From: an uncultured candidatus Brocadiaceae bacterium
Lineage (GTDB): Bacteria; Planctomycetota; Brocadiia; SM23-32
DNA: 64,000 bases
Assembly: GCA_964572825.1 (NCBI GenBank)
Contig: CAZNGS010000009.1
Span: 8,413 to 72,412, forward strand
Direction: 5' to 3'
Shown here: positions 1,805 through 45,924 of the stretch, in pieces
Layout of the letters: every line of letters begins with the position of its first letter
Position numbering within the stretch: position 1 is the stretch's first letter
The notes under the pieces: model-generated
The model's input: only the letters and a program-made list of their open reading frames with translations
Told to the model about the DNA's origin: nothing
Database searches by the model: none
Translations under genes and position numbers: made by a program

Positions 1805-1913
1805 GTAGGCCCGGCCTCCATTGTCTGAAGGGAAACAGCGCCGCGGACCGGATGTCCAGCGTCGCCGTGGCATTGTGTAGTTTGCAGTGCGCGGGCGCAA
1901 GTCCGCGTGGTCT

Positions 1914-1942
1914 TTGAAAACTTCCGGCATCCGTCCTACAAT
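1914..1942 (+). promoter_or_regulatory. sigma-70-like promoter TTGAAA-N17-TACAAT upstream of the methyltransferase/sulfatase operon
   Basis: TTGAAA at 1914-1919, a 17 nt spacer and TACAAT at 1937-1942, about 35 nt upstream of the ATG at 1977. A GGAGAG RBS sits at 1963-1968. Confidence 0.4.
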
Positions 1943-1976
1943 CCGCCGTTCGGCCCCCCACTGGAGAGCAACTTCA

Positions 1977-3065: not shown

Positions 3066-3079
3066 AAGGAGAGACCGAC

Positions 3080-5682: not shown

Positions 5683-6692
5683 CGCAGAAGCGCGGCCGTT
5701 TGGCGGCGCCAGGCCAGCGCCGTCTCCGCGCGGGCCAGCGCGATGGGGTTGTGGTCGTCTGTGATGGTGACCGCGCCCGGTCGGTCGGTTTCCAGCCGGC
5801 GCCGCGAGAGTTCGTAGCTGAGCCGATCCACGCCCACCGACGGCTGCCAGCTCTGCCAGAGAGGGAGGAGCTGCATGGGGCGCCGAAAGGCGAACACGAT
5901 GATGACCTGCACCGCCGATGCGTCGTTCGTCGTCCGGTAGGCCCGCACCATGTTCCGCCCGAACACATCCCCGAGGGTCCGGAAAAGCGAATCGGTCACG
6001 AAATCCCCCGTGGGCCGGCCGATATAGTTGATGGCCAGTATGCCGTCCTCGGTGAGCCGCTGTTTTGTCAGTTCGAAAAACTCGCGCGTGATCAGGTGGA
6101 AGGGGATTACGTCCGAGTTGTAGGCGTCCAGCACGACGAAGTCCACCGGCTCTTCATGCCGCCGCAGATACTGCCGGCCATCCTGGATGACCGCCCGGCC
6201 GCGGTAGGGGCCGGGGGGGCGGTGCGCACGCCTTTGCTCCTCGCCCGGCACGCCCACCTCCCGGTTTGGGAAGCGCTCGAGGTCCACCCGATGGAGCGTG
6301 CCGTCGGGGTAGAAGATATCGCCGCGATAGCCGAAATATGCCTTCGCCAGTTCGGCGACCTTGACGTCAATCTCCACGGCGGTCCAATCGATGTCGTAGA
6401 ACTCCATCACCCGGGGGAACATGCCACCCGCCAGCACCACGAGGCTGTAGAGCATCCACGCCCGCGGGAGCCGGTCCGCCAGTCGGCCTCCGACCGCGTA
6501 ACCCGCCGCCAGGCAGGTGAGCGTGACGCTCAGCAGCGCCGCCCACACGTAGAGGCTGCTGCCGTAGCAGGTGCCCACCACGCGCGTGCCCAGGATCTCC
6601 AGCGCCAGCACCGAAGCGCCCGTCACGGTCACCAGGCCGAGCAGGTAGATGCGCCCCGGCTCCCGGCGCTGCTCCCCGGGCCTTTCACTCAT
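5679..6692 (-). CDS. spermidine synthase-like (polyamine aminopropyltransferase family) protein with N-terminal transmembrane helices
   Basis: The N-terminus has hydrophobic helices (LLGLVTVTGASVLALEILG, LYVWAALLSVTLTCLAAGYAVG). A SpeE-like core follows (VEIDVKVAELAKAYFG...DFVVLDAYNSDVIPFHLITREFFE...DGILAINY). The start is taken at the internal ATG 6692 (MSERPGEQ...). Confidence 0.6.
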   Translation of the reverse strand: MSERPGEQRREPGRIYLLGLVTVTGASVLALEILGTRVVGTCYGSSLYVWAALLSVTLTCLAAGYAVGGRLADRLPRAWMLYSLVVLAGGMFPRVMEFYDIDWTAVEIDVKVAELAKAYFGYRGDIFYPDGTLHRVDLERFPNREVGVPGEEQRRAHRPPGPYRGRAVIQDGRQYLRRHEEPVDFVVLDAYNSDVIPFHLITREFFELTKQRLTEDGILAINYIGRPTGDFVTDSLFRTLGDVFGRNMVRAYRTTNDASAVQVIIVFAFRRPMQLLPLWQSWQPSVGVDRLSYELSRRRLETDRPGAVTITDDHNPIALARAETALAWRRQTAALLR

Positions 6693-6835
6693 CCCCGGAT
6701 ACCTCGGCAAGCGGCACGGCGGCCACGCCGGAGTAAGTCCGCAGCCACAGCACTCCGGCATAGGGGTCCTCGCACAGCACCCCTGGCTTGAACACACCTT
6801 TCAGAAACGCCACGCACTTTCCCCCCCGGTAGAGG

Positions 6836-8443
6836 TTACTGCTTTTTTTCCGGCAGGAGAAAGCCGTCTGCGGCGGCGGGGGCATCTGCTCCACCGGCGC
6901 CCAGCAGGTCCGGATGCCCCTCGGCGAGAACTATCCGCTGGCCGTGGGAGTGGGAGATGAGCATGAGGTCCGGCTGTTCGCCCTGCAGGTGCAGCTCGCG
7001 TGTGCGGGCATCGAACCGGGCCTTCCAGCCGCCGTCCTCGCGTCGTGCGAGGCAGCCGAACGAGAAGTAGTAGCCGGCATAGTACCGCCTCGGCATCATC
7101 CGGTAGACGCCCCAGATGCGATCGGGCGACAGACACAGGGCTTCAACGGTCCTGGGCACGATTTCATCCTGGTTCACGGTATCCTTCTGCCCCATCACCC
7201 ACCGTTTTTCGGAGGGGAGCTCATGCGCATCGATCAGGACCCAGCCGTCGGCCGTTCGATGCACGAGCGCCAGGCCAGTCGCGCGCGGCTTCCACCTCTT
7301 GACGTGCGCCATGCCGGGATGCGCCCCGAGCTCCACCGGGCGGTCGTAGGTAAGGCAGGCCGCCCAGACTTCGTCACCGTGCGCCGCAATGGTGCTCAGG
7401 AAGCGAATGTCCACGCCGTCCGCCCGTTCGGTTACCGTCCACCGGTCCTTCTCCAGGTCAAACCGGCTGATGCCGCCGCCAATGAACTCTCCGGACTTCT
7501 CGTCGTAGTCGGGCTCGCTGACCAGGTAGAAGGCGTCGTCCGCCAGCGCCATGTCGATGGGTCTGCCCGCTGCGGGACCTTCCCCCAGCGCGTAGGTGGT
7601 CAGGCTGCCGTCTGCCCCCTCGTAGCGCAGGACGCCCGTCGTCCCCAGCGCCCACACCGTCCCGTGCCGTGCGGCGGCGTGCCAGACATTGGTGCTCAGC
7701 GTCCGCCACTGCCCGGCCTGGAGATCGAAGTGGAGCAGCCGTTTCGAGCAGATGCAGTAGAGGCCGTCGTCCGTGCACAGGGCCGGGGGAATGAGGGTAT
7801 CCAGTTTCCGGCGCCAGAAGGCATGCCACCAGTCCTTCGCCGCGATTCGCTGGAGAGCGTGCTGCGCGGGGAATTCGGACAGCGCCTGCCACCGGTGGGA
7901 CTCCGGGGCAAAGTGCCATGCTCCCGCGTCGCTCACGATCCAGGCATGACCCTCCGCCGCGACGACGCGTCCCAGCGTGAAGCGCACCTCCTCGACCGGT
8001 TCGATACGCCCGACCTCCAGGTTCAGCACGGCCAGGCCCGCGCGTGTGGCCAGCCAGACCCGGTCTCGGTCCGGGGCGATGGACTGCACGGCCGCCTCGG
8101 GCAGGCCCCGGGCGCGGCCGTAGGTGGACACGACGCGGCCGTGCGCGGCGCTGACGGCGTAGAGCATTGCGTCGTCAGCCGCCCAGAGGGTATCTCCGTC
8201 CACCGCGTGGCAGAGGAGCCTGCCCTTGCCCGTGCGGACAGCCGGTTGCAGGACGAGCGCGCTGTCGATGTCCTCCGGCACAGCCGCCTGGCGCTCGGCC
8301 GGTCTATGCACCGAACTGAGAAGACAAAAGCCCCGCCGCCACAGCTCCTTCATGGCGGCCCTGGTCCGCTCCGAGGGCTCCTCCGCAGGCACCGCGGCGG
8401 CCGAGGCAACGGTCAACGTCAGCACCAGAAGCAGGCGCTTCAT
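6836..8443 (-). CDS. secreted hypothetical protein with a signal peptide, probably beta-propeller-like
   Basis: MKRLLLVLTLTVASAAAVPA is a signal peptide. The protein is Trp/Gly-rich and repetitive. No confident family assignment. Confidence 0.55.
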   Translation of the reverse strand: MKRLLLVLTLTVASAAAVPAEEPSERTRAAMKELWRRGFCLLSSVHRPAERQAAVPEDIDSALVLQPAVRTGKGRLLCHAVDGDTLWAADDAMLYAVSAAHGRVVSTYGRARGLPEAAVQSIAPDRDRVWLATRAGLAVLNLEVGRIEPVEEVRFTLGRVVAAEGHAWIVSDAGAWHFAPESHRWQALSEFPAQHALQRIAAKDWWHAFWRRKLDTLIPPALCTDDGLYCICSKRLLHFDLQAGQWRTLSTNVWHAAARHGTVWALGTTGVLRYEGADGSLTTYALGEGPAAGRPIDMALADDAFYLVSEPDYDEKSGEFIGGGISRFDLEKDRWTVTERADGVDIRFLSTIAAHGDEVWAACLTYDRPVELGAHPGMAHVKRWKPRATGLALVHRTADGWVLIDAHELPSEKRWVMGQKDTVNQDEIVPRTVEALCLSPDRIWGVYRMMPRRYYAGYYFSFGCLARREDGGWKARFDARTRELHLQGEQPDLMLISHSHGQRIVLAEGHPDLLGAGGADAPAAADGFLLPEKKQ

Positions 8444-8500: not shown

Positions 8501-9667
8501 TCAGTCCACGGGCAGCTCCCTGGGATCCACCGGCCGGTCGGTTTTGGCCGAGAGTTGTGCCGCCAGGCACATGCGCAGGGACTCGATGGCGCCGTCCATA
8601 TGGTTGTCCGGCGGGCAGTTACGCTCGACCCCGCGCATGAGCGAGCCCATCGTCCCCATCATCCCGGCCACGGGCCCGGAGATGTCGTACCAGGGCCCTT
8701 CAAGGGGGTCGAACGGGTTGATGTCGGACCACAGGGGCTCGTACACGTGATCGGGCAGCTCCAGGAGGACCGGCCGTCCGCCGCGCTCGGTGAAGACCTC
8801 GACGAACTCCCGCTCGCCCGGGGCCGGGAAGTGCCAGTTCCAGTTGTGCTGCGCCCGGATGGAGCCGCCCTCGGCCATCACGCGGATGTTGGTCCGGTGC
8901 GCTTCCATGCCGGAGTGGTTCTCGATGTGGTAGGCGACGCAGCCGCCCTCGAACTCGTAGATGGCCATGGTGGTCTTCATGCCCGCCCACGCCTTGACCG
9001 CGATGCAGGGCCTGTCCACCCACCATCGCACGAGGTCCGCGTGATGGATCACGTGGCCCAGGTAGGCGGGCGTGGGGTCCTCCAGGTCGATCGGCCCGCC
9101 CTGCCAGTAGTTCTGTAGCTCGATCACCCCGGGCCGGCCCATGCGCTCGGGCGTGAGCAACTGCTTGACCGAGTAGCAGGCGGGGTTGTAGCGGCAGTTC
9201 TGGTTGACGGCCAGCCAGATGCCGGCCTCCTGCGCCGCGCGCGCCATCTTCCGGGCCGATTCAACGGTGGTGGCCACCGGCTTATGGATCATCAGGTGCT
9301 TTCCTGCCTCGCCCGCCGCCTCGATGACCTCCATGCGGAGGGCCTCTTTCTTCTCGCCGGCGCCGAAGCAGCAGTCCACCACGTCCACCTGGTCGTTTTC
9401 GATTACCTCGTGCCAGTCGTCCGTGATGGTGCCCACGTCGAAGCCCTTGCGCCTGGTTTCCTCGATCCGGTCCTCGTTGATCTCCGCGGCGGTCACCACG
9501 TTGAACCGGGCCGCCTGGTAGGCGGGAAGGTGCATCGTCAGCACCACCCAGTGCAGCCCTATGCTGCCGATGCCGTAGTCCGTCTTCTGGTTCTCGAAGT
9601 CGATCCGGTAGGGCGGAACGCTGAACCCCAGTGCCTGCTCCATGCGGCTGACATCCTGTTCGGCCAT
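8501..9667 (-). CDS. Gfo/Idh/MocA-family NAD(P)-dependent oxidoreductase
   Basis: An IGSIGLHWVV...NVVTAAEINEDRIEETRR...DVVDCCFGAGEKKEALRMEVIEAAGEAGKHLMIHKP Rossmann-like N-terminus and the family's C-terminal domain are present. The start is at the internal ATG 9667, with AGGAG upstream. Confidence 0.7.
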   Translation of the reverse strand: MAEQDVSRMEQALGFSVPPYRIDFENQKTDYGIGSIGLHWVVLTMHLPAYQAARFNVVTAAEINEDRIEETRRKGFDVGTITDDWHEVIENDQVDVVDCCFGAGEKKEALRMEVIEAAGEAGKHLMIHKPVATTVESARKMARAAQEAGIWLAVNQNCRYNPACYSVKQLLTPERMGRPGVIELQNYWQGGPIDLEDPTPAYLGHVIHHADLVRWWVDRPCIAVKAWAGMKTTMAIYEFEGGCVAYHIENHSGMEAHRTNIRVMAEGGSIRAQHNWNWHFPAPGEREFVEVFTERGGRPVLLELPDHVYEPLWSDINPFDPLEGPWYDISGPVAGMMGTMGSLMRGVERNCPPDNHMDGAIESLRMCLAAQLSAKTDRPVDPRELPVD

Positions 9668-9797
9668 GGTCTGACTCCTGCAGTTCCAATGAAGGTCGGT
9701 ACTTCCCACATGCCCAACTCCGGGACAGTCTAAGCGAACCTTCCCCGGCCCACAATGGAAAACGGACGGGCACCGAGAGACGGCTACCCACTTGCCC

Positions 9798-11399
9798 TCA
9801 GTGGCCGTTGTCTGCCGGCTGTTCACGCAGAAACACCACCGACGGCGACTTGCCCGTATGGAGGACGGCGGGTTCCCGGCGGTGGACCTGAAACTGACGG
9901 CTCTGGCGCATGAATTCGGACGTTACCGGCCCCGCGCCATGTCTCACTGCTCTGAGGAAAACGGTCCTGACGGCTTCCTCATCGAGTGGGCCGAGCCTGG
10001 GGTGGACCAGCAGCCGGCAAACGGTTATGCCGGGTTCCGTCTCCGACAGGACCAACTGATAATCGCCCACGTCGCCTCCGAAGCTGCGCGGCAGAACTTC
10101 TTCCAGGACGCGGGCGGCATCCCGCCCGGAGAGCGTCAGTCCCTCCGTCGTCAGCCTGGCAAAACTCCACAGACCGCGAAGGTGGGTATGGAAACCCATA
10201 CGGTCCCAAGGGCATTCGCAACGCCTGCGCTCCACCACGCCCGCGTCACCCGTCTCCGCGTTGATCATAATCTTTGGGCTGGCCGGGGAAAGGGCTGTGA
10301 ACAGCAGGGGGCGCACGAACTTCTCTGTCCCGACTGCCCTGGAATGCGAGATCACGGCGAAACGGTGTTCGTAGACGTGCATGTCGTCGCTGCCCCTTGG
10401 CGCCAGACAGGCTTCGGCGGCTTCCCCCATCTCGGTGGCCCCAAACAGCGGCAGGCAGGCTCCTCCCGCGGCCTCGATGGTGCGTCGTTTCGCCTCGGTG
10501 ATCGGCTCGCCCGCCACCAGCAGAACGCAACCGTCCAGGTCAAGCCCTTGCCGAACGGCCCACGTGGCCAGCCGCGCGGCCGTCGAGGGATAAGTCACCA
10601 TCAGGGCCCCCGGACCCCGGCCGGCCACGCGGGCAAGCCATGCGGCCGGTCGCGAAGGACGTAGAGGCGAGGCGAATTCCGGTCGCGGCAGCGCCAGGCC
10701 GCCCCCCCGAGCCAGCAGCACCAGGCCCCACGCCCTGGCCATCGCCCCGCGCGCCGGTCCCGTTGGAGAGACGGGTACCTGACAGAACCACCTGCGGGGC
10801 ACTGCACCCACCCGGACAAGCCGCAGCAACCGGGACAGCGCCCACTCGGTGGGCGGGAGGTAGAGGGCAAATTCGGCGCCGACCAGGCCGTTTATCTCCA
10901 GGGACCGCCGGGCATGGTGACACTGCTCCCGGTAGTGGCTCGGACCGACTGCCACGCGCGTGGGAGCCCCCGTGCTGCCGCTGCTGACGTGCGGAAAACC
11001 CGGCCACTGGCACGGATTGTCAAACTGCTTCGGCTGGAACTGGAACAGGGCCGCACCGCGGCGGGCTGGTTCCCGGCCCTTCATCTCGTCGAGAGTTACG
11101 TAGAGCCCATCTCCGGCGAGTCGTTGCAGCGCGCCCTCGAGGCCCCGACTGCGCACGAGCACACGCAGGTCCTCATACGTGCAGCCCAGATGTCGGAACA
11201 GCGCCAGATAAGGACTGTCCGGATTGGCGAACACGGCTCGGGCGACCACCCGAAGGAAGCGTCTTCCACGCCGTTCGTTCAGGCGATGGATGGCTTCTCG
11301 GGCACGGCCCCCCTTGTATGGTTCCCGCGCGAACCGCAGAAGGCGCCGGCCGCCCCGGAGCAGAGACAGGCCGCGCCGCAGACAGGCTGAAGCGACCAT
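9798..11399 (-). CDS. PaaK / coenzyme F390 synthetase-like adenylate-forming enzyme (ANL superfamily)
   Basis: HVSSGSTGAPTRVAVGPSHY is a P-loop-like SSGTTG motif. LLVAGEPITEAKRR and ATEMGEA are also present. The length of about 530 aa fits the phenylacetate-CoA ligase family. Confidence 0.6.
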   Translation of the reverse strand: MVASACLRRGLSLLRGGRRLLRFAREPYKGGRAREAIHRLNERRGRRFLRVVARAVFANPDSPYLALFRHLGCTYEDLRVLVRSRGLEGALQRLAGDGLYVTLDEMKGREPARRGAALFQFQPKQFDNPCQWPGFPHVSSGSTGAPTRVAVGPSHYREQCHHARRSLEINGLVGAEFALYLPPTEWALSRLLRLVRVGAVPRRWFCQVPVSPTGPARGAMARAWGLVLLARGGGLALPRPEFASPLRPSRPAAWLARVAGRGPGALMVTYPSTAARLATWAVRQGLDLDGCVLLVAGEPITEAKRRTIEAAGGACLPLFGATEMGEAAEACLAPRGSDDMHVYEHRFAVISHSRAVGTEKFVRPLLFTALSPASPKIMINAETGDAGVVERRRCECPWDRMGFHTHLRGLWSFARLTTEGLTLSGRDAARVLEEVLPRSFGGDVGDYQLVLSETEPGITVCRLLVHPRLGPLDEEAVRTVFLRAVRHGAGPVTSEFMRQSRQFQVHRREPAVLHTGKSPSVVFLREQPADNGH

Positions 11400-11736
11400 C
11401 GACCCCCCGTCGCCGAATGGAAAAGCGCCGCCAGAACCGCCGGACTCCGAACAGGCGCGTTGCGAGCTTACCGTGCACTCACGGCACTGTCAATACGGTC
11501 GGCGCCGGCATCAGGGATGTCCCGGGGTGATGCTGACCGGCCCGGGCCGGATATCCCCGGGTTGCGGCGGATCGGGTGGATCAGCTGTCGGGTCTGGAAG
11601 GAGGGACGTGCTCAGGTCAGCATCATCATGTAGGAGTTTCGCTACCAGTTTGCTGCGGCGGGCACAGCCGATGCACGGGCGGACCTCCAGGCAAGCGATC
11701 CGCCCGGAGGGTTAAGTGAATTGAGGTAAATGCCTT

Positions 11737-11808
11737 CCGGCTGCCAAACAGCCGGCGCGGCGGGGACGCCGCGCCTACCCCTTGGGGTAGGTCCGGCGTC
11801 TCGCCGGA
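11737..11808. repeat. array of four contiguous perfect palindromic hairpins; structured RNA or a REP-like element
   Basis: CCGGCTG-ccaaa-CAGCCGG (11737-11755). CGCGGCG-ggga-CGCCGCG (11756-11773). CCTACCCC-tt-GGGGTAGG (11774-11791). TCCGGCG-tct-CGCCGGA (11792-11808). The four are directly abutting. Confidence 0.5.
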
Positions 11809-12092
11809 CCGGAGTTCGTACGATCTGGGGAGCCGGGCCTTGCCTTCTGTCCAGGTAGTTGAGCCAGCGTGCCCTCAGCGCGTCGGGTTTCGCAAACCGG
11901 AAAAGATTTATCTCGTATCGCTTAACAACTCCCCTTGAGGAATGTAACTCAACCGCTGCCGGGTGAGGATCGCCTTTTTTCGTTGCCACCCGGAGATCAT
12001 ATGTTCTTCAGAAGAGTGTCGGGCGCGCCACCTCGAGTGAACGGCCATCCGGGGGGCGCCGCGGAAAGCCGGTGCATGCATGGCCGGGGCGG

Positions 12093-13283
12093 TCAGGTGG
12101 TCGGCCGGGCAATCGGAGCGGCTATCTGGTCGAAGAAGGGCGTGGTGCGGCGTTCCACGCATTGGGCCGCGTAAAGGTACACGGCCGCCGACCAGGTCTG
12201 CCAGTCCTGCCCCTGCGGGGTGCCGTCCTGGGCCCGAAACCATTCGTTGAAACCGAACTCGACATCGGCGCTTCTGGAGGGACGAACCAGTTCGGTCAGG
12301 GCGGCGAGATTGCGCTCCGCCACGCGGTAACGCCGGGCACTCACGCAGGCCGCGACATAAAAACCGCATATGTAGGGCCATACCCCGCCGTTGTGGTACT
12401 CGCCCGGCCTGCCGTACTGCTCATAGCGCGGGCGCCAGTCCGGGTGCTCGGGCCGGATGTAGGGGAACAGGGCCGGTGGAAGCTCGAGGGCCAGGTCCCC
12501 GTTGCTTCGCAGCGCGGCGCATTCGTGTTCGACCCACGAGACGATGGATTGGGCCCGGGAGCGCGAGGCGATGCCCGAGAGAATGGCCAGGCTGTTGCCC
12601 AGCAGGTCGAATCGCTCGCTGCGGTAGAGCTTGTAGGACCACAGTGCGTAGTACGGCTTGTGCGCCAGCACGAGACCCTCATGGACGTGGGGATGCCTGC
12701 TCTCCGCTTCGACTGAGAAACGGTTCATGAGCTCCCGCAGCGTCCGGGCGCGCTCGTCGTGCCCATAGAGGCGCAGATACATGTGGACCAGGGCGTTCAC
12801 GTACAGGCCGTAGCCCAGCACCCATTGCTCGTCCCGCCAGTCACTGGTGGGCAGTTGAGCGACGATGACGCGGTCCTCGGGGCTCTGGTATTCCATCCAG
12901 GTCAGCGCGGCCCGGGCGGCCTCTTCCAGGAAGCTTTCCTCCCCGGTGGCGTTTCTGAACAGGGCCAGCCCCAGGAGGAAAAGCGGCGTAGTATCGCTGG
13001 CCCCTCTATTCTCCGGATCGTGGACGAGGGAAGGAATGTGTCCCCGCTGGCTCTGGTTGTTAGCCAGCGCCTGGAGGACCCGCCTCACCGTGTAGATGAG
13101 CCGCTCCTCCCCCGAGAGCAAGATGCCCGGCGTGGATATCATGATGTCGCGCGTATAGGGCTCGGGGTAGCCCCAGCCCGCGGTGCGAAAGAGGGAACGG
13201 TAAGGGCCCCGACGGTTGTGCTTCAGAACCTCCAGGGCCGCCTCCTTTGTCTCCGCCACGGCGCAGGCAAGTTTCCTGTCCAT
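12093..13283 (-). CDS. (alpha/alpha)6-barrel glycoside hydrolase (GH63 / GH100 / glycogen-debranching C-terminal-like)
   Basis: About 396 aa, with WGYPEPYTRD, SDTTPLFL, DWRDEQWVLGYGLYVNAL and GEYHNGGVWPY. These motifs are typical of six-hairpin glycosidases such as neutral invertase, mannosylglycerate hydrolase or GDE-C. Confidence 0.55.
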   Translation of the reverse strand: MDRKLACAVAETKEAALEVLKHNRRGPYRSLFRTAGWGYPEPYTRDIMISTPGILLSGEERLIYTVRRVLQALANNQSQRGHIPSLVHDPENRGASDTTPLFLLGLALFRNATGEESFLEEAARAALTWMEYQSPEDRVIVAQLPTSDWRDEQWVLGYGLYVNALVHMYLRLYGHDERARTLRELMNRFSVEAESRHPHVHEGLVLAHKPYYALWSYKLYRSERFDLLGNSLAILSGIASRSRAQSIVSWVEHECAALRSNGDLALELPPALFPYIRPEHPDWRPRYEQYGRPGEYHNGGVWPYICGFYVAACVSARRYRVAERNLAALTELVRPSRSADVEFGFNEWFRAQDGTPQGQDWQTWSAAVYLYAAQCVERRTTPFFDQIAAPIARPTT

Positions 13284-13284
13284 G

Positions 13285-14427
13285 TCAGCCTATCCCCAGT
13301 TTGTTGGAGAGGATTTCCACCAGGGCCCCGGCCACCACCCGGTAGTCGAACAGCTCCACGGCCCTCTTCCTGCCCGCTTCGCCCATCCTGCGCCGAAGGT
13401 CGGGATCGGTCATCAGGTCCATCAGGTAGTTGGCGATGTCGTGCACGCTGGCCCGATAGTCGGCGGTGCGAGGCTGGTCGAAGACGATGCGGTGCTCCGG
13501 CTCGTATCCCTCGTCTTCGCCGAGGAACGTCTCCCCGACGCGGATCTCTTGCCCGATGCCTGCCAGAAAACCGGTTTCCCCGTGCACGATAGTATCCAGC
13601 ATCCCCATGGCCTTCATGCCGAGCACCGGCTTGCCACACGCCTGGGCCTCCACCTGGATCATTCCAAAACCCTCCAGCCGAGACGGCGCCGCGTAGATGT
13701 CACAGGCGGCCATCAGGTACGGCATGAAATTCCTGGAAACCACGCTGGTGGTGTAACTGACGCTCTTCTCGATGCCAAGGCGCGTAGCCAGTTGCAGATC
13801 GTAGAGGTTTTGTTGCTCCGTCCTGGGCTGCGGCCATACCTTGCAGACGTATTTCCAGTCGGGGGCCTTCGTGTCGATAATGGCGAGTGCCTGCATCACC
13901 TCCTGGGCGCCCTTCGAGGCGGCGTCCCCACCGACAGTCAGGATCATGATCTGGTCGGGCGCGACTCCCAATGCCTCGCGCACGGCCTTTACTTTCGGCT
14001 CCTCCCTGTCCCGGGGAATGAACGCATCGGTATCGCACCCTACAGGTAAGACCTCCAATTTCTCTTCCTCAACGCCGTCTCTGATGTATATCTCTTTCAC
14101 CCAATTGGAGGTGACCAGAATCAGCGGCAGTGCGTTCAGCACCTCCATATAATTCGCAATGTAGCCGTCGGCCACGAACCACGGCACAGGCTGCAACCCA
14201 TACCGTTGTGGGTGCAGGATTAAGTGCGGGATATGCCCCCAGTACCCTATGCCGACCGCGACATCCGGTTCAAACCAGCGGTAGTACCATTCTTTCTCCT
14301 GCGCCGATTCGAAATGCACCGCGTGCGCATCCACGCCTATCTCCAGGAGGCCCCGGAACAAGAGGTCCCCCTGCGTGGCCAGCCCTCCCGGCGATGGCGG
14401 GTAGTCGTAAAGCACCAGGACTTTCAT
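13285..14427 (-). CDS. family 4 (GT-B) glycosyltransferase
   Basis: MKVLVLYDYPPSPGGLATQ at the N-terminus and a C-terminal EGFGMIQVEAQACGKPV (the E-x7-E region) are typical of GT4. The start ATG at 14427 overlaps the upstream stop as ATGA. Confidence 0.8.
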   Translation of the reverse strand: MKVLVLYDYPPSPGGLATQGDLLFRGLLEIGVDAHAVHFESAQEKEWYYRWFEPDVAVGIGYWGHIPHLILHPQRYGLQPVPWFVADGYIANYMEVLNALPLILVTSNWVKEIYIRDGVEEEKLEVLPVGCDTDAFIPRDREEPKVKAVREALGVAPDQIMILTVGGDAASKGAQEVMQALAIIDTKAPDWKYVCKVWPQPRTEQQNLYDLQLATRLGIEKSVSYTTSVVSRNFMPYLMAACDIYAAPSRLEGFGMIQVEAQACGKPVLGMKAMGMLDTIVHGETGFLAGIGQEIRVGETFLGEDEGYEPEHRIVFDQPRTADYRASVHDIANYLMDLMTDPDLRRRMGEAGRKRAVELFDYRVVAGALVEILSNKLGIG

Positions 14428-15062
14428 GCGTTCACCTCGTGATCCCTCAGCCACTTCGCGTAGCCATCGGGGTCCTCAAAACACCAGAAGCCCTCCGTCC
14501 GGGGGGCCGCCCTCACTTCGAAGCTCCCGGGCCCGAAACCGTAGATGTCGGTGAGTATGGACTTCTTTCGCCGCCACAAGCTTCCGGGCAGTTTTTCCCG
14601 GCGGTGCGCATCCGCCCTGGCGCGGGGCAGGTGCCGCCCGCCTTCGTCACTGTAGGCAAACAGCCACAGTTTGCCGACCGACAGGCGCCCGTCCACCCAG
14701 AGCCTGGTGACCGCGCGGCTGACTTCCTCATGGCGGCGGTGCCGGGTGTATTCCCCCCACGGGCCGTGGGTCAGCGCCACGTCGAAACTCGCCTCCGACA
14801 GCAGCGAGAGCAGGGCGTCTTCTACCACCTCCGGGGGCAGGGGTGTCTGCTCGGGGCCGTCGTCCAGGTCGGCCATGACGGCGCTGCCCCCCAGTTCATG
14901 GACGGCCTGGGCGTACCGGGGAGCCCGGTCCGGATCGCCCTTGCGGCACGCGGCTATGGCAAGGCACTGCCACGTGCGGTGACCCATGATCGTCCCGCCC
15001 GCCCAGAGGGTCTCATCGTCCGGGTGGGCCACCACAATGGCGACGTCCTTGCGGTCGGTCAT
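14424..15062 (-). CDS. PIG-L / LmbE-family N-acetylglucosaminyl deacetylase
   Basis: VAIVVAHPDDETLWAGGTI is the AHPDDE zinc-binding motif of the PIG-L/MshB/BshB family. The ATG at 15062 is preceded by GGAGG. Confidence 0.8.
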   Translation of the reverse strand: MTDRKDVAIVVAHPDDETLWAGGTIMGHRTWQCLAIAACRKGDPDRAPRYAQAVHELGGSAVMADLDDGPEQTPLPPEVVEDALLSLLSEASFDVALTHGPWGEYTRHRRHEEVSRAVTRLWVDGRLSVGKLWLFAYSDEGGRHLPRARADAHRREKLPGSLWRRKKSILTDIYGFGPGSFEVRAAPRTEGFWCFEDPDGYAKWLRDHEVNA

Positions 15063-15104
15063 CCTCCGCTCCCAGGTGGGACAGGGCAATCCAGCAGGCC
15101 GCTC

Positions 15105-16538
15105 TCAGGTTTTGTAATCTTCTTTGCAAAGGTCGTGCCGTTTCATCTTGTCGTAGAGGGCCCTGGGGCTCAGGCCGGCCCGCTTCGCCGTCTGTCCTAC
15201 GCGCCCCCCGGTGGCCGCCAGCAGCCCCTCGATGTAGCCCTTTTCCAGGTCGGCCAGGAACCGCTCTCGGACGCGGCGCCACGGCATGCGGAGCCATTCC
15301 TCGGGCAGGTCACCGACGATCGGACCGCCGGGTGCAGAGCCTGGCTCGTCCCCCACTGGGCCAGCTCCACCCCGCACGGTTTCCGGCAGATCGGCCGGGC
15401 CGATCATGCCGCCGTCGCAGAGCAAGAGCGCCCGTTCGATGACGTTAATCAGTTCGCGCACGTTTCCCGGCCAGGAGTATTGTATCAGGGCATCGAGGGC
15501 CTGGTCCGTGATCCCTTCCGCCGCACAGCCCACGCGTGGCTGCAGGTAGTCCATGTAGCTCTCGACGAGCACGGGTATGTCCTCCCGGCGCTCCCGGAGG
15601 GGCGGAATGGTGAGCGTGACGACGCTGAGGCGATAGTAGAGGTCCCGTCTGAAGCGCCCTTCGCTGACCTCACTCTCCAGGTCGCGATTGCTGGCGGCCA
15701 TCAGTCGCACGTCCACCGGTATGGTTCTTTCGCCGCCTACGGGCTGGACTTGACGGTCCTGAAGCACGCGCAGCAGTTTGACCTGGACGTGGTAGGGCAA
15801 CTCGCCGATTTCGTCCAGGAACACCGTGCCCCGGTGAGCCAACTCAAACCAGCCCCGGCGAGTCCTGGCCGCCCCCGTAAAGGCTCCTCTCTCGTGGCCG
15901 AAAAGCTCGCTCTCCAGCAGCGACTCGGGCAGGGCTGCGCAGTTGATGGCGACGAACGGGCCCTCGGATCGCGGCCCCTCGCCATGAATGGCCCTGGCGA
16001 GCCGTTCCTTGCCCACGCCGGTCTCGCCCAGGATGAGCAGCGAGACATCGCTGCGCACCACTCGCCGTGCGAGCCCCATGAACACCTGCATGCAGGGGCT
16101 CTCCGAGACGAAGTCGGACAGGCGCGGCGTGGACATATCCCCATCGGCCAGCAGTGTGCTGCGGGCGGCCGCCGCCCGCCGCGCCAGCAGGGCCTGCAGA
16201 ACCTCGCCGAAGACCTCGGCCGACAGCCCTTCGTGGAGGACCGCCAGGCAGCCGGACGCCGTCAGGCAGGCCCGGTTGACCGGGTCGTCACTGGCCGAGA
16301 TGACGATCACGCCCGGGGGGTCCGGCAACTCTCCAAGGGCAGCGATCTTCTGCGCCAGTGGTCCGCGCACGGCGCCCTCGCTGATCACAAGCATGTCCGC
16401 CGTCTTGCGAACGACCCGGTCCCACAGGCCGCTCCCGGTGGCCTCGATTTCCAGCAGGATGTCCGGCTTGTTCAGCAGCCCGCGCAACTGCCGCCGGAGG
16501 GGTGCGGAACTGACGGCCAGAACTACCCGCGTCAGCAT
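15105..16538 (-). CDS. sigma-54-dependent transcriptional activator (NtrC family) with a degenerate N-terminal receiver-like domain
   Basis: AAA+ sigma-54 interaction motifs [14 protein letters not shown] and ESELFGHE are present. A C-terminal Fis-type HTH follows. The N-terminal domain lacks the acidic Asp-Asp pair and reads VVLAVSS. Confidence 0.8.
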
Positions 16539-16707
16539 TCGAGCATGCTCCCCCCAAGAGTCCCGATAAGTACTTTTACTGCCGATTTGACCGGAAGTCA
16601 AGATTCTGATTCCCTATCGACCAACGTTCCGGCGTCTCCGGGTTTTGTTCTTCGCAAAGCTTTCGTACAAAATCACTTGCACAGAATCAGCCCCTGGAAT
16701 GCGGCAA

Positions 16708-16723
16708 TGGCACACCATCTGCT
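16708..16723 (+). promoter_or_regulatory. sigma-54 (-24/-12) promoter TGGCAC-N7-GC
   Basis: TGGCACaccatctGCt has GG at 16709-10 and GC at 16721-22, an exact 12 nt offset. This matches the TGGCAC-N5-TTGC consensus except for T to C at -14. It lies about 78 nt upstream of the small ORF ATG. Confidence 0.45.
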
Positions 16724-16800: not shown

Positions 16801-16896
16801 ATGGCAAAGGCAAAGGGCAAAGCAGCCAAGCCGGCCAAGAAGGCCCAGGGCAAGGCAAGAGAGAAGAGCAAGGGCCGAAAGAGCCCCAAGCGTTAG
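16801..16896 (+). CDS. small ORF encoding a 31-aa Lys/Ala-rich basic peptide (MAKAKGKAAKPAKKAQGKAREKSKGRKSPKR)
   Basis: The ATG sits 6 nt after a GGGAGGCAGGAAAG Shine-Dalgarno. G/C dominates third codon positions. A clean TAG stop is followed immediately by a strong hairpin. It is too short (below about 60 aa) to appear in the ORF track. Confidence 0.35.
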   Translation: MAKAKGKAAKPAKKAQGKAREKSKGRKSPKR

Positions 16897-16940: not shown

Positions 16941-18347
16941 CTATTCCTCGGCCAGCTTGCGCACTATGTCGTCGCGCTCCACGTCGCACTTGCGCATCAG
17001 GCGGTGGAAGCTCTCCCGTTCGATGCCGGCGTGTTCGGCCGCGCGGGTGACGTTGCCCCCGTACTGCTTGAGCACGTCGATCAGATACTGCCTCTGGCAG
17101 CTCAGGCTGGCCTTGTCCATGGCCTTGCGGTAGGGAAGATTCACCAGGGCGGCCATGTCGGCGGGGGGGCGCTGCTCGTCCGATTCCAGAAACGGGAACA
17201 GGGAGGGGGTGATGAGGTAGTCGTCGCACAGCACCACGGCCCGCTCGATGGCGTTTTGGAGCTCGCGGACGTTGCCGGGCCAGTGGTAGTTCATCAGCTT
17301 CTCCATGGCGGCCGTGGACAGCTCGTAACGATCGGCCTCCTCGCCCGCGAACAGGCGCAGGAAGTGGTCCACCAACAGGGGGATGTCCCGGGGTCGCTCC
17401 CGCAGCGGGGGCAGGCGGATGGGGAATACGTTCAACCGATAGTAGAGGTCCTCGCGGAATCTGTCCTCCTCCATGGCCTTCTGCAGGTCCCGGTTGGTGG
17501 AGGCGATGATGCGCACGTCCACGGGGATGTCCTCGGTGTCGCCCACGCGTCGGATCTCGCGCTCCTGAATGGCGCGATTGATCTTGACCTGCAGGTCCGC
17601 CTCCAGCTCGGTAATCTCGTCGAGGAAAAGCGACCCCCCGTCGGCCTCCATGAACAGGCCCCGTTTGTCCTTGGAGGCGCCGCTGAAAGCGCCCCGCACG
17701 TGGCCGAACAGCTCGCTCTCGATCAGCTCTTTGGGCATGGCCCCGCAGTTGATGGCCACGAAGCGGCGCCGCGCCCGATCGCTGGCGGAGTGGATGGCCC
17801 GGGCGAACAGCTCCTTGCCGGTGCCGCTCTCCCCGGTCAGCAGGACAGTTGTGTCGGCCTCGGCCGCCTTGCGGGCCAGCTCGAAGGCATCCTTGATGGC
17901 CTCGCTCTCGCCGATGATATTGGGGAATCCGTATTTCTCCTGCACCTGTTCCTTGAGTATCTGGGTTTCCTCGCGGAGCTGCTTGCGTTCGAGCGCTTTT
18001 TCCAGGGCTATTTTCAGCTCGTCCGGCTCGAACGGCTTGGTCAGGTAGTTGTAGGCGCCGGCCTTGACCGCTTCCACGGCCTGGCTGACGGTGGCGAAAG
18101 CCGTCATGAGGATCACCTCGGTCTGGGGCGCCCTGGCCTTCACCTGCCGCAGCAACTCCATCCCGTCCATCCCCGGCATGCGGATGTCGCTGAGCATCAC
18201 GTCCACCGGCTGCCGGTCGAGCTGATCCAGGGCCCGGTCTGCCGAGCTGAACGTGCTTACCTCGTAGTCTCGTGAGAGCAACTGGGAGAGCATCTTCAGC
18301 ATGCTCTCCTTGTCGTCCACCACGAATATGCGCGCTTTCGCACCCAT
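16941..18347 (-). CDS. sigma-54-dependent two-component response regulator (NtrC/AtoC family)
   Basis: A canonical receiver (IFVVDDKESM...DVMLSDIRMPGMDG) is followed by the AAA+ sigma-54 domain (GESGTGKE, GAFSGA). A C-terminal HTH is present. Confidence 0.85.
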   Translation of the reverse strand: MGAKARIFVVDDKESMLKMLSQLLSRDYEVSTFSSADRALDQLDRQPVDVMLSDIRMPGMDGMELLRQVKARAPQTEVILMTAFATVSQAVEAVKAGAYNYLTKPFEPDELKIALEKALERKQLREETQILKEQVQEKYGFPNIIGESEAIKDAFELARKAAEADTTVLLTGESGTGKELFARAIHSASDRARRRFVAINCGAMPKELIESELFGHVRGAFSGASKDKRGLFMEADGGSLFLDEITELEADLQVKINRAIQEREIRRVGDTEDIPVDVRIIASTNRDLQKAMEEDRFREDLYYRLNVFPIRLPPLRERPRDIPLLVDHFLRLFAGEEADRYELSTAAMEKLMNYHWPGNVRELQNAIERAVVLCDDYLITPSLFPFLESDEQRPPADMAALVNLPYRKAMDKASLSCQRQYLIDVLKQYGGNVTRAAEHAGIERESFHRLMRKCDVERDDIVRKLAEE

Positions 18348-38323: not shown

Positions 38324-38351
38324 TTTGGCCCTCCCGGTGGTCTCAGACGCG

Positions 38352-38855
38352 TCAATCCCTGTGGCGTGAACTGGTTTCTTCCGGCGCGGTCCCGTCATCG
38401 GCGGCGTCCCGCAACACCGTGCCCGCCTCTTCCACGAAGTCGCTGACGTCCTTGAATTCCTGATAGACGGAGGCGAAGCGGATGTACGCCACCTGGTCGA
38501 GCTCGCGCAGCCTGGTCATCACGAGCTGCCCGATCTTCCGGCTTGGCACTTCGCCCTCGTAGTGGCGGTGCAACTCCCGCTCGACGTCCTCGGCCAGCGC
38601 CCTGATGCGCTCGGCGGGGATGGGACGCTTGTAACATGCCTTGTTCAGGCCGGAGATGATTTTCTTCAGGCTGAAGTCCTCGCGGCCCCCGTCTTTCTTG
38701 ATCACCCGCAGGACGCTCTCTTCGATGCGCTCGTAAGTGGTGTAGCGGCGGCCGCAGGCGTTGCATTCCCGGCGGCGCTTCACGTAGGTCCCGTCGGCAC
38801 TGGGGCGGGAGTTGACGACCCGATCATCGTCCTTCTTGCAGTACGGGCACTGCAC
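38352..38855 (-). CDS. nrdR: transcriptional repressor NrdR
   Basis: MQCPYCKKDDDRVVNSRPS...CNACGRRYTTYERIEES is the NrdR zinc ribbon. An ATP-cone follows. The start is GTG with a GAGG RBS. Confidence 0.85.
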   Translation of the reverse strand: MQCPYCKKDDDRVVNSRPSADGTYVKRRRECNACGRRYTTYERIEESVLRVIKKDGGREDFSLKKIISGLNKACYKRPIPAERIRALAEDVERELHRHYEGEVPSRKIGQLVMTRLRELDQVAYIRFASVYQEFKDVSDFVEEAGTVLRDAADDGTAPEETSSRHRD

Positions 38856-43274: not shown

Positions 43275-43287
43275 GTAACTCACCCGC

Positions 43288-45842: not shown

Positions 45843-45924
45843 CGGCGCTCTCTCGGTCAGGGAAGTTGGGCCGTGCGCTCCGATCGGCCCTGCCTTCCCG
45901 GGCAGCAACCCCCGAGCGACTCGG

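Follow-up and report, generated by a model that had tools for sequence, protein, structure and literature searches.

The question raised by this locus is whether the minus-strand string formed by a sigma-54 activator, a deacetylase, a glycosyltransferase and a glycoside hydrolase is a conserved unit and, if so, what it makes. Within the window, by which is meant the whole stretch of 64,000 nucleotides that was analysed, the string reads as follows.

15105..16538, minus strand: sigma-54 enhancer-binding protein (EBP), 477 aa; degenerate receiver-like N-terminus, GAFTGA-containing AAA+ domain, Fis-type HTH (Pfam, NCBIfam)
14424..15062, minus strand: PIG-L/LmbE (CE14-type) zinc de-N-acetylase, 212 aa (Pfam, structure match)
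13285..14427, minus strand: GT4 (GT-B, retaining) glycosyltransferase, 380 aa, invariably paired with the hydrolase (Pfam, synteny)
12093..13283, minus strand: GH100-like glycoside hydrolase of clan GH-G type with a single (alpha/alpha)6 domain, 396 aa, closing the triad (Pfam, structure match)

The coordinates given for these genes in the initial annotation hold and agree with independent gene calls; calls on two independent Logan contigs return proteins of 477, 212, 380 and 396 aa, respectively, and a divergent ORF of 31 aa. The GC3 values of 0.78-0.85 for all four genes (genome GC 65-67%) indicate that all four are real. The tight linkage described earlier is borne out by both coordinates and sequence, the PIG-L and GT4 genes sharing 4 nt (gcATGAaag) and a single nucleotide separating the end of the GT4 gene (13285) from the start of the hydrolase gene (13283). 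Reading of the sequences by eye reveals no signal or membrane segment at the N-terminus of PIG-L, GT4 or hydrolase, and on this basis all three appear to be soluble proteins of the cytoplasm.

What is conserved is a triad consisting of PIG-L deacetylase, GT4 and GH100-like (alpha/alpha)6 hydrolase, in that order. A scan of species representatives returned a minimum of 587 hydrolase relatives, among which 80 genome loci were fetched as the synteny sample. In every fetched locus with enough flank the GT4 gene lies directly 5' of the hydrolase gene, with a median gap of 2 nt between GT4 stop and hydrolase start, and a PIG-L gene lies 5' of GT4 in 64 of the 67 loci with enough flank; in 3 loci it does not adjoin GT4. 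Synteny of the GT4/PIG-L pair in related genomes, on which the earlier interpretation had been made to depend, is therefore kept across many phyla, and the recurrence of the three-gene order in nearly all related loci indicates a linkage far beyond chance. The loci are from Planctomycetota, Spirochaetota, Chloroflexota, Bacteroidota, Verrucomicrobiota, Acidobacteriota, Desulfobacterota and other phyla, and lie on long contigs, including one closed Spirochaetota chromosome. Pairwise identities of the triad proteins correlate (Spearman 0.56-0.67), consistent with co-evolution. None of the three proteins reaches a curated equivalog cut-off, whether for MshA, BshA, SPS, GgH or any other, and no paper describing the cassette was found; the triad is an uncharacterised cassette whose gene order is shared by hundreds of bacterial species of many phyla.

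Two genomic elements previously attached to this cassette do not belong to it. The PaaK-like and Gfo genes, regarded as a linked part, form a separate unit that is not conserved in the loci, has its own promoter-like site and is separated from the triad by ∼700 nt of non-coding DNA. The EBP was placed at the head of the cassette, but 78 of the 80 genome loci in the sample lack it; it is a lineage-specific regulator of one Planctomycetota subclade, that of the source genome, and stands outside the conserved cassette. The only recurrent extra neighbours are GH130 (26/80), a second GT4 (23/80), which in some lineages is fused to another (alpha/alpha)6 domain, and MarC (9/80), the MarC/NAAT protein being the sole recurrent membrane protein near the triad. 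Individual loci carry other genes: in the L076 variant an ATP-grasp ligase, a GNAT and a PLP decarboxylase lie between EBP and triad, in L086 CMD/AhpD-like and OsmC genes lie downstream, and stress-type genes in EBP-linked loci comprise Hsp20 with Cpn60, MscS with a K+ channel, and OsmC, each in one locus only.

The glycosyltransferase matches PF00534 (81 bits) and PF13692, and its E-x7-E motif (E252..E260) is invariant across phyla, with a mean column identity of 82% and homologs in other phyla 69-80% identical to the window protein. Its closest characterised relatives by PDB and NCBIfam matches are GlgM, MshA, BshA and SPS, each below its cut-off; no informative match was returned for the acceptor domain at the N-terminus. 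As these are small-molecule enzymes, the earlier expectation that GT4 would not lie closest to LPS or capsule transferases is upheld. The GT4 family is nevertheless broad, including LPS, EPS and lipid glycosyltransferases, and NCBIfam returns weak matches to EpsE and GlcN-PG synthase, so that the triad might instead write, edit and erase a modification on an envelope or macromolecular target (LPS, capsule or other envelope polysaccharide, a GPI- or GlcN-PG-type GlcN-lipid, or protein). PIG-A and PIG-L, which act in GPI synthesis, are the prototype of this pairing, and the very high GT4 conservation would fit a conserved macromolecular partner. Such a target is highly improbable, however, given that all three proteins appear soluble and cytoplasmic, that the best-scoring characterised GT4 relatives use soluble acceptors, that no polysaccharide export, polymerase, flippase or lipid-carrier gene recurs near the triad in the 80 loci, and that the organisms carrying the cassette differ greatly in envelope type.

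The deacetylase matches PF02585 (37.7 bits, cut-off 28.2) and has no NCBIfam match. Its assignment as LmbE/PIG-L with an AHPDDE motif is corroborated by structure comparison, which reveals the LmbE fold with intact metal-binding motifs; PH0499 is one of the top structural matches, and MshB and BC1534 are among the best. PIG-L enzymes function in archaeal chitobiose catabolism. The LmbE fold does not always denote a deacetylase, at least one such protein, GalB, being a hydratase.

The hydrolase matches PF12899 Glyco_hydro_100 (46.7 bits, cut-off 23.6) and also PF06202 GDE_C, and the best structural match of its predicted model is a GH100 sucrose alpha-glucosidase. The third gene product thus has a clan GH-G-like alpha-glucosidase fold, although the active-site loops of the model have pLDDT <50 and its catalytic geometry is tentative. 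Its motifs align with residues that in clan GH-G serve as catalytic Asp and Glu, as 'fixer' Asp and as Trp platform, with residue roles as in bioRxiv 10.64898/2026.07.01.735942. The profile assignments proposed initially (PF02585, PF00534, GH63/GH100) stand with one exception, in that GH100 is the nearest family and membership in the GH63 glucosylglycerate/mannosylglycerate hydrolases is not supported, the GgH score being 18 bits against a cut-off of 550. A distant GH100-like homolog from Deinococcus, 31% identical, lies in an ABC-transporter/ROK catabolic locus without GT4 and PIG-L partners.

That homolog, together with the place of PH0499 among the top structural matches of PIG-L, raises the possibility of cytoplasmic salvage or catabolism of an imported GlcNAc glycoside, in which GT4 would run in reverse as a retaining phosphorylase alongside GH130, deacetylase and hydrolase. 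Fungal trehalose phosphorylases are GT4 enzymes that work in this manner. Retaining phosphorylases do occur within GT4 (PMC8950772), and the GH130 neighbours resemble beta-1,4-mannoside and Man-GlcNAc phosphorylases. We nonetheless consider salvage very unlikely: none of the usual catabolic genes, namely substrate uptake (ABC or PTS), a kinase or a LacI/ROK-type regulator, recurs in the 80 loci, a catabolic accessory enzyme would not usually keep 69-80% identity between phyla as GT4 does, and the low identity and missing partners of the Deinococcus protein weaken the parallel.

Beyond the established gene content, folds, catalytic motifs, synteny, co-evolution and conservation of promoter-like elements, we infer donor, acceptor, reaction order and physiological role as follows. 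The triad is probably one self-contained cytoplasmic module making and recycling a glucosamine-containing compound. In the first step the retaining GT4 would use a nucleotide sugar, most likely UDP-GlcNAc, as donor and transfer GlcNAc onto a small acceptor, giving an alpha-GlcNAc glycoside. The acceptor would probably be a phosphorylated or anionic sugar, polyol or acid, since the nearest characterised relatives GlgM, MshA, SPS and BshA use such acceptors, although a phosphorylated acceptor would call for a phosphatase and the cassette has no conserved one. The zinc-dependent PIG-L would then strip the N-acetyl group to leave an alpha-glucosaminide, and the clan-GH-G-like inverting alpha-glucosidase would cleave an alpha-gluco-configured bond of the product or a precursor, in turnover, trimming or release. 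A single operon that both makes and hydrolyses one product would run a futile cycle unless regulated, so the hydrolase may act on another substrate. The GH130 beta-mannoside phosphorylase/synthase, second GT4 and MarC/NAAT added in some lineages suggest an extendable, possibly transported product. The most plausible role seems to be that of a stress-protective solute or cofactor scaffold. Taken together, an alpha-GlcNAc glycoside made in the cytoplasm, de-N-acetylated and turned over by hydrolysis, possibly linked to stress, as a variant of MshA/MshB and BshA/BshB logic, has about an even chance of being correct, and the interpretation first offered for the locus is supported in part.

Regulation in the source genome involves the following further features.

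15126..15140, minus strand: sigma-54-type promoter-like element CGGCACGACCTTTGC, GG-N10-GC, 9/10 positions (consensus match, conservation)
16573..16601, minus strand: sigma-70-like promoter of the EBP gene, TTGACT, 17 nt, TAAAAG (read from sequence)
16708..16722, plus strand: sigma-54-type promoter-like element TGGCACACCATCTGC, 5' of the small ORF and pointing away from the EBP gene (consensus match)
16801..16896, plus strand: Lys/Ala-rich small ORF of 31 aa, MAKAKGKAAKPAKKAQGKAREKSKGRKSPKR, conserved partner of the EBP family (gene call on L001)
41817..43313, minus strand: rpoN (sigma-54), matching Pfam Sigma54_AID, Sigma54_CBD and Sigma54_DBD

The EBP matches PF00158 (231 bits), AAA_lid_14 and HTH_8. 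What had been described as a receiver lacking the phospho-accepting acidic pocket can be retained only as a degenerate receiver-like region; the N-terminal 147 aa have no Pfam receiver match even at E<=10 and do not align with the true receiver of a neighbouring EBP. Full-length orthologs occur near the triad in L084 (66%), L007 (55%) and L076 (47%), and further orthologs lie upstream of different, non-triad genes. In the sister genome L087 the triad is deleted and a scar is left behind the EBP, indicating that the triad formerly lay behind the EBP there too.

Only five sites in the 64-kb window have at most one sigma-54 mismatch, one being 15126..15140, and the EBP gene is bracketed by two of these five, both correctly oriented. 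The element at 15126..15140 lies within the last EBP codons, 64 nt 5' of the PIG-L ATG, and has counterparts at the corresponding position in L084 (AGGCACGGCCTTTGC) and L087 (CGGCACAACCTTTGC), the conservation extending to the A/T-ending codons CTT, AAA and GAA within GC-rich genes; in the other 64 loci the PIG-L gene has no such site in front of it. In the EBP subclade the triad seems, from its sequence, to have its own sigma-54 promoter in the EBP 3' end rather than simply being co-transcribed with EBP. The sigma-54-like site reported 5' of the small divergent ORF is real, with counterparts in L084 (TGGCACAGAACGTGC) and L087 (TGGCACGCCGTCTGC), and homologous peptides adjoin EBP orthologs in L084, L087 and L088. 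The sigma-70-like block TCTTGAC(T/A)TCCGGT..AATCGG..GTA(A/T)AAG is kept in L084. The EBP would accordingly be expressed from its own sigma-70-like promoter in the source genome and close relatives, and, of the two flanking sigma-54 promoters, one would drive the small basic peptide and the other, facing the opposite way, the triad, so that the triad appears to be switched on by the sigma-54 activator encoded beside it. The rpoN gene within the window encodes the sigma factor needed by the predicted promoters.

Among known systems, the regulator resembles NtrC-family EBPs with a non-phosphorylatable N-terminal domain in its AAA+ domain with GAFTGA, C-terminal Fis-type HTH and adjoining GG-N10-GC promoters, but its N-terminal domain is not called a receiver by Pfam, one promoter-like site lies inside its own 3' coding end, and the genes 3' of EBPs of this type vary by lineage.

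For the enzymes, a first comparison is with the mycobacterial methylmannose polysaccharide cluster, in the synthesis of which the GT4 ManT is paired with MmpH. By analogy GT4 could elongate an intracellular alpha-GlcNAc/GlcN chain, PIG-L de-N-acetylate it and the hydrolase cut primers or the store; the strict GT4-hydrolase pairing suggests a hydrolase needed for synthesis and not for breakdown alone, and the extra GT4 and GH130 genes of many loci could lengthen chains. This oligo- or polysaccharide is unlikely, as the best hydrolase matches in structure and sequence are single-domain, disaccharide-acting GH100 enzymes and the nearest GT4 relatives are non-processive and use small acceptors. 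The triad hydrolase is only 12% identical to MmpH, neither methyltransferases nor other tailoring genes are conserved near the triad in the fetched loci, and the triad has PIG-L and a different sugar. Sucrose metabolism likewise combines a GT4 (SPS) with a GH100 alkaline/neutral invertase, but the triad GT4 scores 21.9 bits against the TIGR02472 cut-off of 576, only the C-terminal 150 aa of the hydrolase align to GH100 at the sequence level (structural identity 20%), there is no SPP phosphatase, and the conserved PIG-L would have no role.

The closest parallel in logic is with mycothiol and bacillithiol, where a retaining GT4 and a PIG-L/LmbE zinc de-N-acetylase are likewise found in one transcription unit; MshA and BshA are among the best matches of GT4, as are MshB and BC1534 for PIG-L. 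The order of deacetylase before transferase is that of bshB1-bshA in B. subtilis. The triad could thus catalyse the opening two steps on the way to a low-molecular-weight thiol or cofactor, with an amino-acid ligase encoded elsewhere and the hydrolase serving salvage or turnover, and the ligase-containing L076 locus and the downstream CMD/AhpD-like and OsmC genes of L086 would fit. This pathway is rather improbable, in that 79 of the 80 genome loci in the sample have no conserved ligase, PIG-L lacks any NCBIfam match, and GT4 falls far short of the cut-offs for MshA (81.5 bits vs 462.5) and BshA (45.1 vs 273.7). To our knowledge no thiol pathway contains a glycosidase. Where mycothiol and bacillithiol synthesis has a Cys ligase, the obligatory and strictly kept third gene of the triad encodes a glycosidase, and the triad has another taxonomic range, over Planctomycetota and many anaerobic phyla.

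The initial annotation proposed a minus-strand string of four genes, and its coordinates are confirmed by the ORFs that pass a GC3 filter, by the gene calls of two independent Logan assemblies, and by Pfam. The filter was used to separate real genes from many shadow ORFs; the GC content of the window is 62–71% in 2-kb windows. Proteins of 477, 212, 380, and 396 aa, together with a divergent 31-aa ORF, are called on both assemblies. The ATGA overlap of the second and third genes and the 1-nt gap between the third and fourth, also part of the original description, agree with coordinates and sequence alike. The four genes, all retained by the GC3 filter, are:

15105..16601, minus strand, real start 16538: enhancer-binding protein (EBP; Pfam Sigma54_activat, AAA_lid_14, HTH_8)
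14424..15089, minus strand, real start 15062: PIG-L deacetylase (Pfam PIG-L)
13285..14454, minus strand, real start 14427: GT4 glycosyltransferase (Pfam Glycos_transf_1)
12093..13283, minus strand: GH100-like hydrolase, GH (Pfam Glyco_hydro_100/GDE_C)

The last three genes, here called the triad, recur together far beyond this contig. More than 6,400 relatives of GH are found in the database, the best 120 all being 66–79% identical, and at least 587 emerge when each species is represented by a single scanned genome, of which the best 80 loci were fetched with their flanks; related loci were searched by tblastn with the proteins of the window. Wherever the flank is long enough, the gene immediately preceding GH is GT4, with a median stop-to-start gap of 2 nt, and GT4 is in turn immediately preceded by PIG-L in 64 of 67 loci (all but L013, L019, and L066), so that the PIG-L/GT4 pairing stands up to a comparison of gene neighborhoods. 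In the fetched loci the three genes always share one strand and one order. Identity to the window proteins is 69–80% for GT4, 62–73% for GH, and 34–56% for PIG-L, and pairwise identity of GT4 averages 75% across loci, a conservation between phyla far above the usual. Across loci, pairwise identities rise and fall together among the three proteins (Spearman 0.56–0.67); the fixed order and the correlated identities therefore indicate that the triad travels and evolves as one unit.

Carriers are labeled as Phycisphaerae, Sedimentisphaerales, Pirellulales, and Brocadiia within Planctomycetota, and elsewhere as Spirochaetota (including a closed 3.5-Mb chromosome), Chloroflexota, Bacteroidota, Verrucomicrobiota, Acidobacteriota, Aminicenantes, Desulfobacterota, and Sumerlaeia. 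Binning error cannot explain this breadth, because many triads lie on contigs of 100–750 kb. Among 50%-identity cluster representatives, only 103 are related to GT4 at E ≤ 1e-30, and identities of full-length relatives drop as 69, 56, 51, 45, and 41%, then 30–38%, the pattern of a compact orthogroup. GT4 domains of about 30% identity also sit within giant metagenome proteins of 2,000–4,400 aa (P0419, P0436, P0440, P0478, and similar).

The assignment of the predicted deacetylase to the PIG-L/LmbE superfamily (CE14-type) is upheld by the PIG-L profile (PF02585, 37.7 bits against a cut-off of 28.2, profile positions 2–127 of 129) and by an LmbE Rossmann-like fold, for the prediction of which an alignment of database homologs was used. 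The AHPDD(E) motif and the downstream H-x-x-H are present, and H13, P14, D15, D16, E17, H108, R110, H111, and E113 are invariant in alignments of 33 and 30 orthologs; the metal ligands among them are presumably those of MshB, by analogy with that enzyme. The LmbE fold also occurs with other chemistry, as in GalB. A search of NCBIfam returns no family for the protein at E ≤ 0.01, and thus no equivalog match of MshB, BshB, or Mca type.

The glycosyltransferase likewise proves to be what was proposed, a retaining GT-B enzyme of family GT4 (PF00534, 81 bits against 26.4) with both glutamates of the E-x7-E motif, E252 and E260, invariant. Its best characterized relatives are GlgM, MshA, BshA, SPS, and HepE, all far below the family cut-offs: 90.7 bits against 302.4 for GlgM (TIGR02149), 81.5 against 462.5 for MshA (TIGR03449), 45.1 against 273.7 for BshA (TIGR03999), and 21.9 against 576 for SPS (TIGR02472). 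GT4 enzymes of the GlgM, MshA, BshA, and SPS types take phosphorylated or anionic small acceptors. The N-terminal domain of the present protein is rich in aromatic residues, and a PDB profile search with the GT4 alignment finds no extension into the acceptor domain. The kinship with MshA and BshA bears on one rival explanation, in which the triad belongs to a thiol or cofactor pathway whose ligase is encoded elsewhere; the distance of the scores from both of those families and the lack of MshB- or BshB-type matches for the deacetylase are to be set beside it.

The hydrolase is a single-domain (alpha/alpha)6 barrel. It matches the GH100 profile PF12899 with 46.7 bits against a cut-off of 23.6, spanning positions 288–433 of 435 only, and its sole PDB sequence matches are GH100 invertases (E 3.7e-9 to ~7e-7), confined to the C-terminal 150 aa. 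The earlier suggestion of a GH63 glucosylglycerate hydrolase is not supported: NF047898 scores 18.2 bits, over 85 residues only, against a cut-off of 550. The AlphaFold2 model has a pTM of 0.79 and a pLDDT of 68, with active-site loops below 50, and the structures closest to this model include GH15 enzymes, the archaeal chain 7vma, and MmpH. Chain 7vma was deposited as a putative glycogen debranching enzyme and has been placed in GH176 by a 2026 preprint (bioRxiv 10.64898/2026.07.01.735942). The same source describes the members of clan GH-G as inverting alpha-glucosidases with common active-site elements: one Asp and one Glu for catalysis, a further "fixer" Asp by which O4 and O6 of the −1 glucoside are held, and a Trp platform (bioRxiv 10.64898/2026.07.01.735942). 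Invariant in the family of GH are D46 (YTRD), D148/D151 (SDWRDEQW), E347 (FNEW), W302 (YHNGGxWP), and W361/W364, and in the alignment to GH100 its FNEW and YHNGGVWP correspond to WPEYY and YHNGGSWP. By sequence alignment these residues are candidate counterparts of the clan GH-G set: D148 or D151 of the catalytic acid, E347 of the base, D46 of the "fixer", and W302 and W361 or W364 of the Trp platform at subsite −1. A second rival explanation is that the triad makes an MMP-like intracellular oligo- or polysaccharide for which the hydrolase generates primers.

Recurrent neighbors were sought by all-against-all clustering of the flanking ORFs of the 80 loci. Only three accessories recur, all on the cassette strand and contiguous with the triad: GH130 (26 of 80 loci), a second GT4 (23 of 80), and a MarC/NAAT-family membrane protein (9 of 80, plus the additional related contigs L084 and L086). 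Examples lie at 2499..3464 and 1875..2465 of locus L005 and at 5891..8161 of locus L080; none of the three is present in the window. In some cases a YPO2471-like (alpha/alpha)6 domain is fused to the second GT4, and the C-terminal domain of a 756-aa representative has no detectable homology to the core GH. In four loci (L009, L044, L055, and L062) GH130 has an unassigned N-terminal extension of ~260 aa. The best PDB matches of GH130 are TM1225, RaMP2, and UhgbMP, which are beta-1,4-mannoside or Man-GlcNAc phosphorylases, and a plasmid search returns only homologs of ~30% identity in a differing, catabolic context; both observations bear on a catabolic route in which GT4 would work as a phosphorylase. 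Export, polymerase, lipid-carrier, ABC or PTS uptake, and sugar-kinase genes show no recurrence among the flanking ORFs of the 80 loci, a result that counts against the catabolic explanation. It also speaks against a last rival, an envelope or macromolecular target of the triad enzymes, as does the finding that none of the three proteins has an N-terminal signal or membrane segment when their sequences are read by eye.

Several genes near the triad in the window do not share its conservation. According to tblastn, almost all related loci lack the EBP, a second EBP, the PaaK-like and Gfo genes, and the genes for a 535-aa protein and a spermidine-synthase-like protein. The PaaK-like and Gfo pair, which the initial annotation had noted further downstream on the same strand, is set apart from the cassette. 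The GH stop is separated from the next gene by an unusually long non-coding stretch of ~700 nt (11400..12092), in which a sigma-70-like TTGACA-17 nt-TAAGCT lies at 11493..11465 on the minus strand; with this spacer and its own promoter-like site, the genes downstream of GH therefore form a separate unit. These two genes and the second EBP (16941..18347) were accordingly rejected as parts of the system, none being conserved alongside the triad. Within the spacer, Rfam at the gathering threshold detects nothing, and folding gives a z of −2.0, which is not compelling. A simple terminator and promoter scan stays at chance level. A terminator-like hairpin with a T-run occurs on the plus strand at 11961..11975, where no plus-strand gene passes the GC3 filter. 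The PaaK-like ORF (9798..11399, minus strand) has no Pfam match and reaches the NCBIfam PaaK and BagE families only at E ~1e-3; its GC3 is lower (0.75) and it overlaps the Gfo gene by 29 nt. Its start and identity are tentative.

The EBP itself is a sigma-54 activator with AAA+ and HTH domains (PF00158, 231 bits; PF02954, 35.9 bits), GAFTGA, and a Walker A sequence GETGVGKE. The initial annotation described a receiver domain without the acidic pocket. No receiver is detectable in the window protein, as the N-terminal 147 aa have no Pfam match at E ≤ 10, nor do they align with the receiver domain in the neighboring EBP; the missing phospho-acceptor does find support among orthologs, since the phospho-Asp position is S or E in four of them (alignment, by eye) and some have a weak precomputed PF00072 match. 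The N-terminus may thus be a degenerate pseudo-receiver without the phospho-acceptor Asp. The adjacent second EBP (minus strand), immediately upstream of the divergent small ORF, has a receiver (PF00072, 109.6 bits); its identity to the first EBP is 38% and confined to the AAA+ and HTH region, and the arrangement is syntenic in the related contig L087.

With at most one mismatch, TGGCAC-N5-TTGC, the context of the sigma-54 signature GG-N10-GC, occurs at only five sites in the 64-kb window, two of which flank the EBP gene in productive orientation. The sites, the sigma-54 gene, and the small ORF with its counterparts on related contigs are:

16708..16722, plus strand: sigma-54-like site, 9/10 positions, upstream of the 31-aa ORF, kept in L084 and L087
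15126..15140, minus strand: sigma-54-like site, 9/10 positions, in the last codons of EBP, 64 nt upstream of the PIG-L start, kept in L084 and L087
41817..43313, minus strand: rpoN (sigma-54), adjoining recR, ybaB, and dnaX
16801..16896, plus strand: small ORF in the window
4146..4229, minus strand: small ORF in L084
7821..7916, minus strand: small ORF in L087
8662..8838, minus strand: small ORF in L088

Both sites qualify as predicted sigma-54-dependent promoters, and the one ahead of the divergent small ORF matches the promoter claimed for it earlier. The argument is made from placement and conservation, because the count of looser matches across the window is not above chance. The embedded site overlaps the codons for R-H-(G/D)-L-C-K-E, in which the A/T-ending CTT, AAA, and GAA are kept though GC3 exceeds 0.8, a pattern that fits selection acting on the DNA as such. 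Upstream of PIG-L, no sigma-54-like site of at least 9/10 is found in the other 64 genome loci; the scan of this region does find conserved sites in L084, L087, and locus L001.

The two close EBP relatives illustrate the history of the arrangement. In L084, a 126-kb JGI contig, a full-length EBP ortholog is 66% identical, the layout of small ORF, EBP, and downstream genes is that of the window, and both sigma-54-like sites are kept along with a sigma-70-like promoter block. The promoter precedes an amino-acid permease (APC) fused to a PtsN-like EIIA domain, followed by the triad, MarC, and convergent MscS-type and K+ channel (TrkA_N) genes; the permease–EIIA (6127..7965) and MscS/TrkA_N (11679..13771) genes have an osmotic or K+ homeostasis flavor. 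L087 (GCA_964448935.1, CAYVBE010000062.1) has an EBP that is 77% identical, is syntenic with the window at 16.9–23.9 kb, and still has both sites along with the EBP and the small ORF, with PIG-L, GT4, and most of GH gone. Directly after the EBP stop, at 9559..9700, lies a remnant of the last 22 residues of GH (AAMYLYAAECVERDDTPFFDQAP*), a deletion scar. The EBP–triad arrangement is thus ancestral to this subclade, and the triad is dispensable; the claim that the EBP heads a conserved cassette is not supported, since this EBP belongs to the subclade and almost all other related loci lack it.

More distant EBP orthologs occur close to the triad in two loci. In locus L007 the ortholog is oriented divergently to ParB-like, Hsp20, Cpn60, and GH130 genes and the triad, and in L076 to GNAT, ATP-grasp, and PLP decarboxylase genes, an unknown gene, and the triad. 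The intervening genes of L076 (3239..7811) encode a GNAT (Acetyltransf_6), an ATP-grasp ligase, a PLP decarboxylase of Orn/DAP/Arg type, and a 347-aa protein, and by analogy with mycothiol logic may belong to a further-elaborated product; the PIG-L of this locus is divergent (34% identity). In L089, an 8.76-Mb genome, a sigma-54-like site (11570) and then Mur_ligase_M/CapB-like and CapC-like genes (12040..13778), of poly-gamma-glutamate type, follow the EBP ortholog. Since this and other EBP orthologs precede unrelated genes, the downstream genes of the family differ between lineages. Divergently upstream of this EBP family a Lys/Ala-rich peptide of 27–31 aa (MAKAKGK...KSPKR) is conserved; in the window, L084, and L087 a sigma-54-like site precedes it, and no site of that quality is found near it in L088. 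Because it is conserved even without the triad, the peptide seems to be the central target of the EBP.

Other genes of the window fit an anaerobic Planctomycetota-like host: NrdD (anaerobic ribonucleotide reductase) is grouped with NrdR, a radical-SAM protein is encoded ~4 kb from them (31185..31943 and 35873..38855, minus strand), and sulfatase, Ser/Thr kinase, and beta-helix genes occur elsewhere. The only Rfam match of the window at the gathering threshold is a large (Bacillus-type) bacterial SRP RNA (RF01854, 140 bits, 45871..46138, minus strand).

The best-supported explanation of the triad is a cytoplasmic three-step module. Its folds, motifs, synteny, and promoter conservation are observed; donor, acceptor, reaction order, and role we infer. 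GT4 would attach GlcNAc in alpha linkage to a small acceptor, probably an anionic or phosphorylated one, PIG-L would de-N-acetylate that product, and the GH-G-like alpha-glucosidase would hydrolyze or trim the result, with accessory genes adding optional mannosylation, further glycosylation, and transport. Hsp20/Cpn60, MscS/K+ channel, and OsmC neighbors, each at a single locus, together with sigma-54 control hint that the metabolite may be protective. Internally, the favored model is troubled mainly by an apparent futile cycle, synthase and hydrolase being co-expressed; the never-broken GT4–GH pair suggests a role for the hydrolase within synthesis or in tight homeostasis. We propose tentatively, and at rather less than even confidence, that in Planctomycetota and no fewer than eight further phyla the triad yields an undescribed cytoplasmic alpha-D-glucosaminide (GlcN-X) of a new small-metabolite class, serving as a stress protectant or a cofactor/thiol scaffold, with GT4 obligatorily coupled to a clan GH-G glycosidase ("make-and-trim").

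Should the inference be right, an unknown glucosamine-containing metabolite would be common to hundreds of species, most of them uncultured and among them abundant anaerobic Planctomycetota of sediment, peat, and digester. The triad occurs widely, is compact and strongly conserved, and lends itself to experiment, and because the cassette is short and self-contained it should be easy to express and its product directly discoverable. GH is compact and a divergent relative of GH100; it may represent a new specificity or subfamily of clan GH-G alpha-glucosidases. The layout, with a promoter in the 3' coding end of the activator, a divergent small-peptide target, and variable downstream genes, may help in reading the sigma-54 regulons of Planctomycetota.

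The triad proteins fall outside every equivalog family tested, and no description of the cassette was found in the searchable literature. Its GT4/PIG-L logic resembles that of the mycothiol, bacillithiol, GPI, and paromamine-type aminoglycoside pairs, and the pairing of a GT4 with a GH100-like enzyme recalls SPS and invertase. Its third, strictly conserved enzyme belongs to none of these pathways, and the proposed "make-and-trim" coupling of GT4 and glycosidase would set the triad apart from the mycothiol, bacillithiol, GPI, and aminoglycoside versions of the GT4/PIG-L pair.
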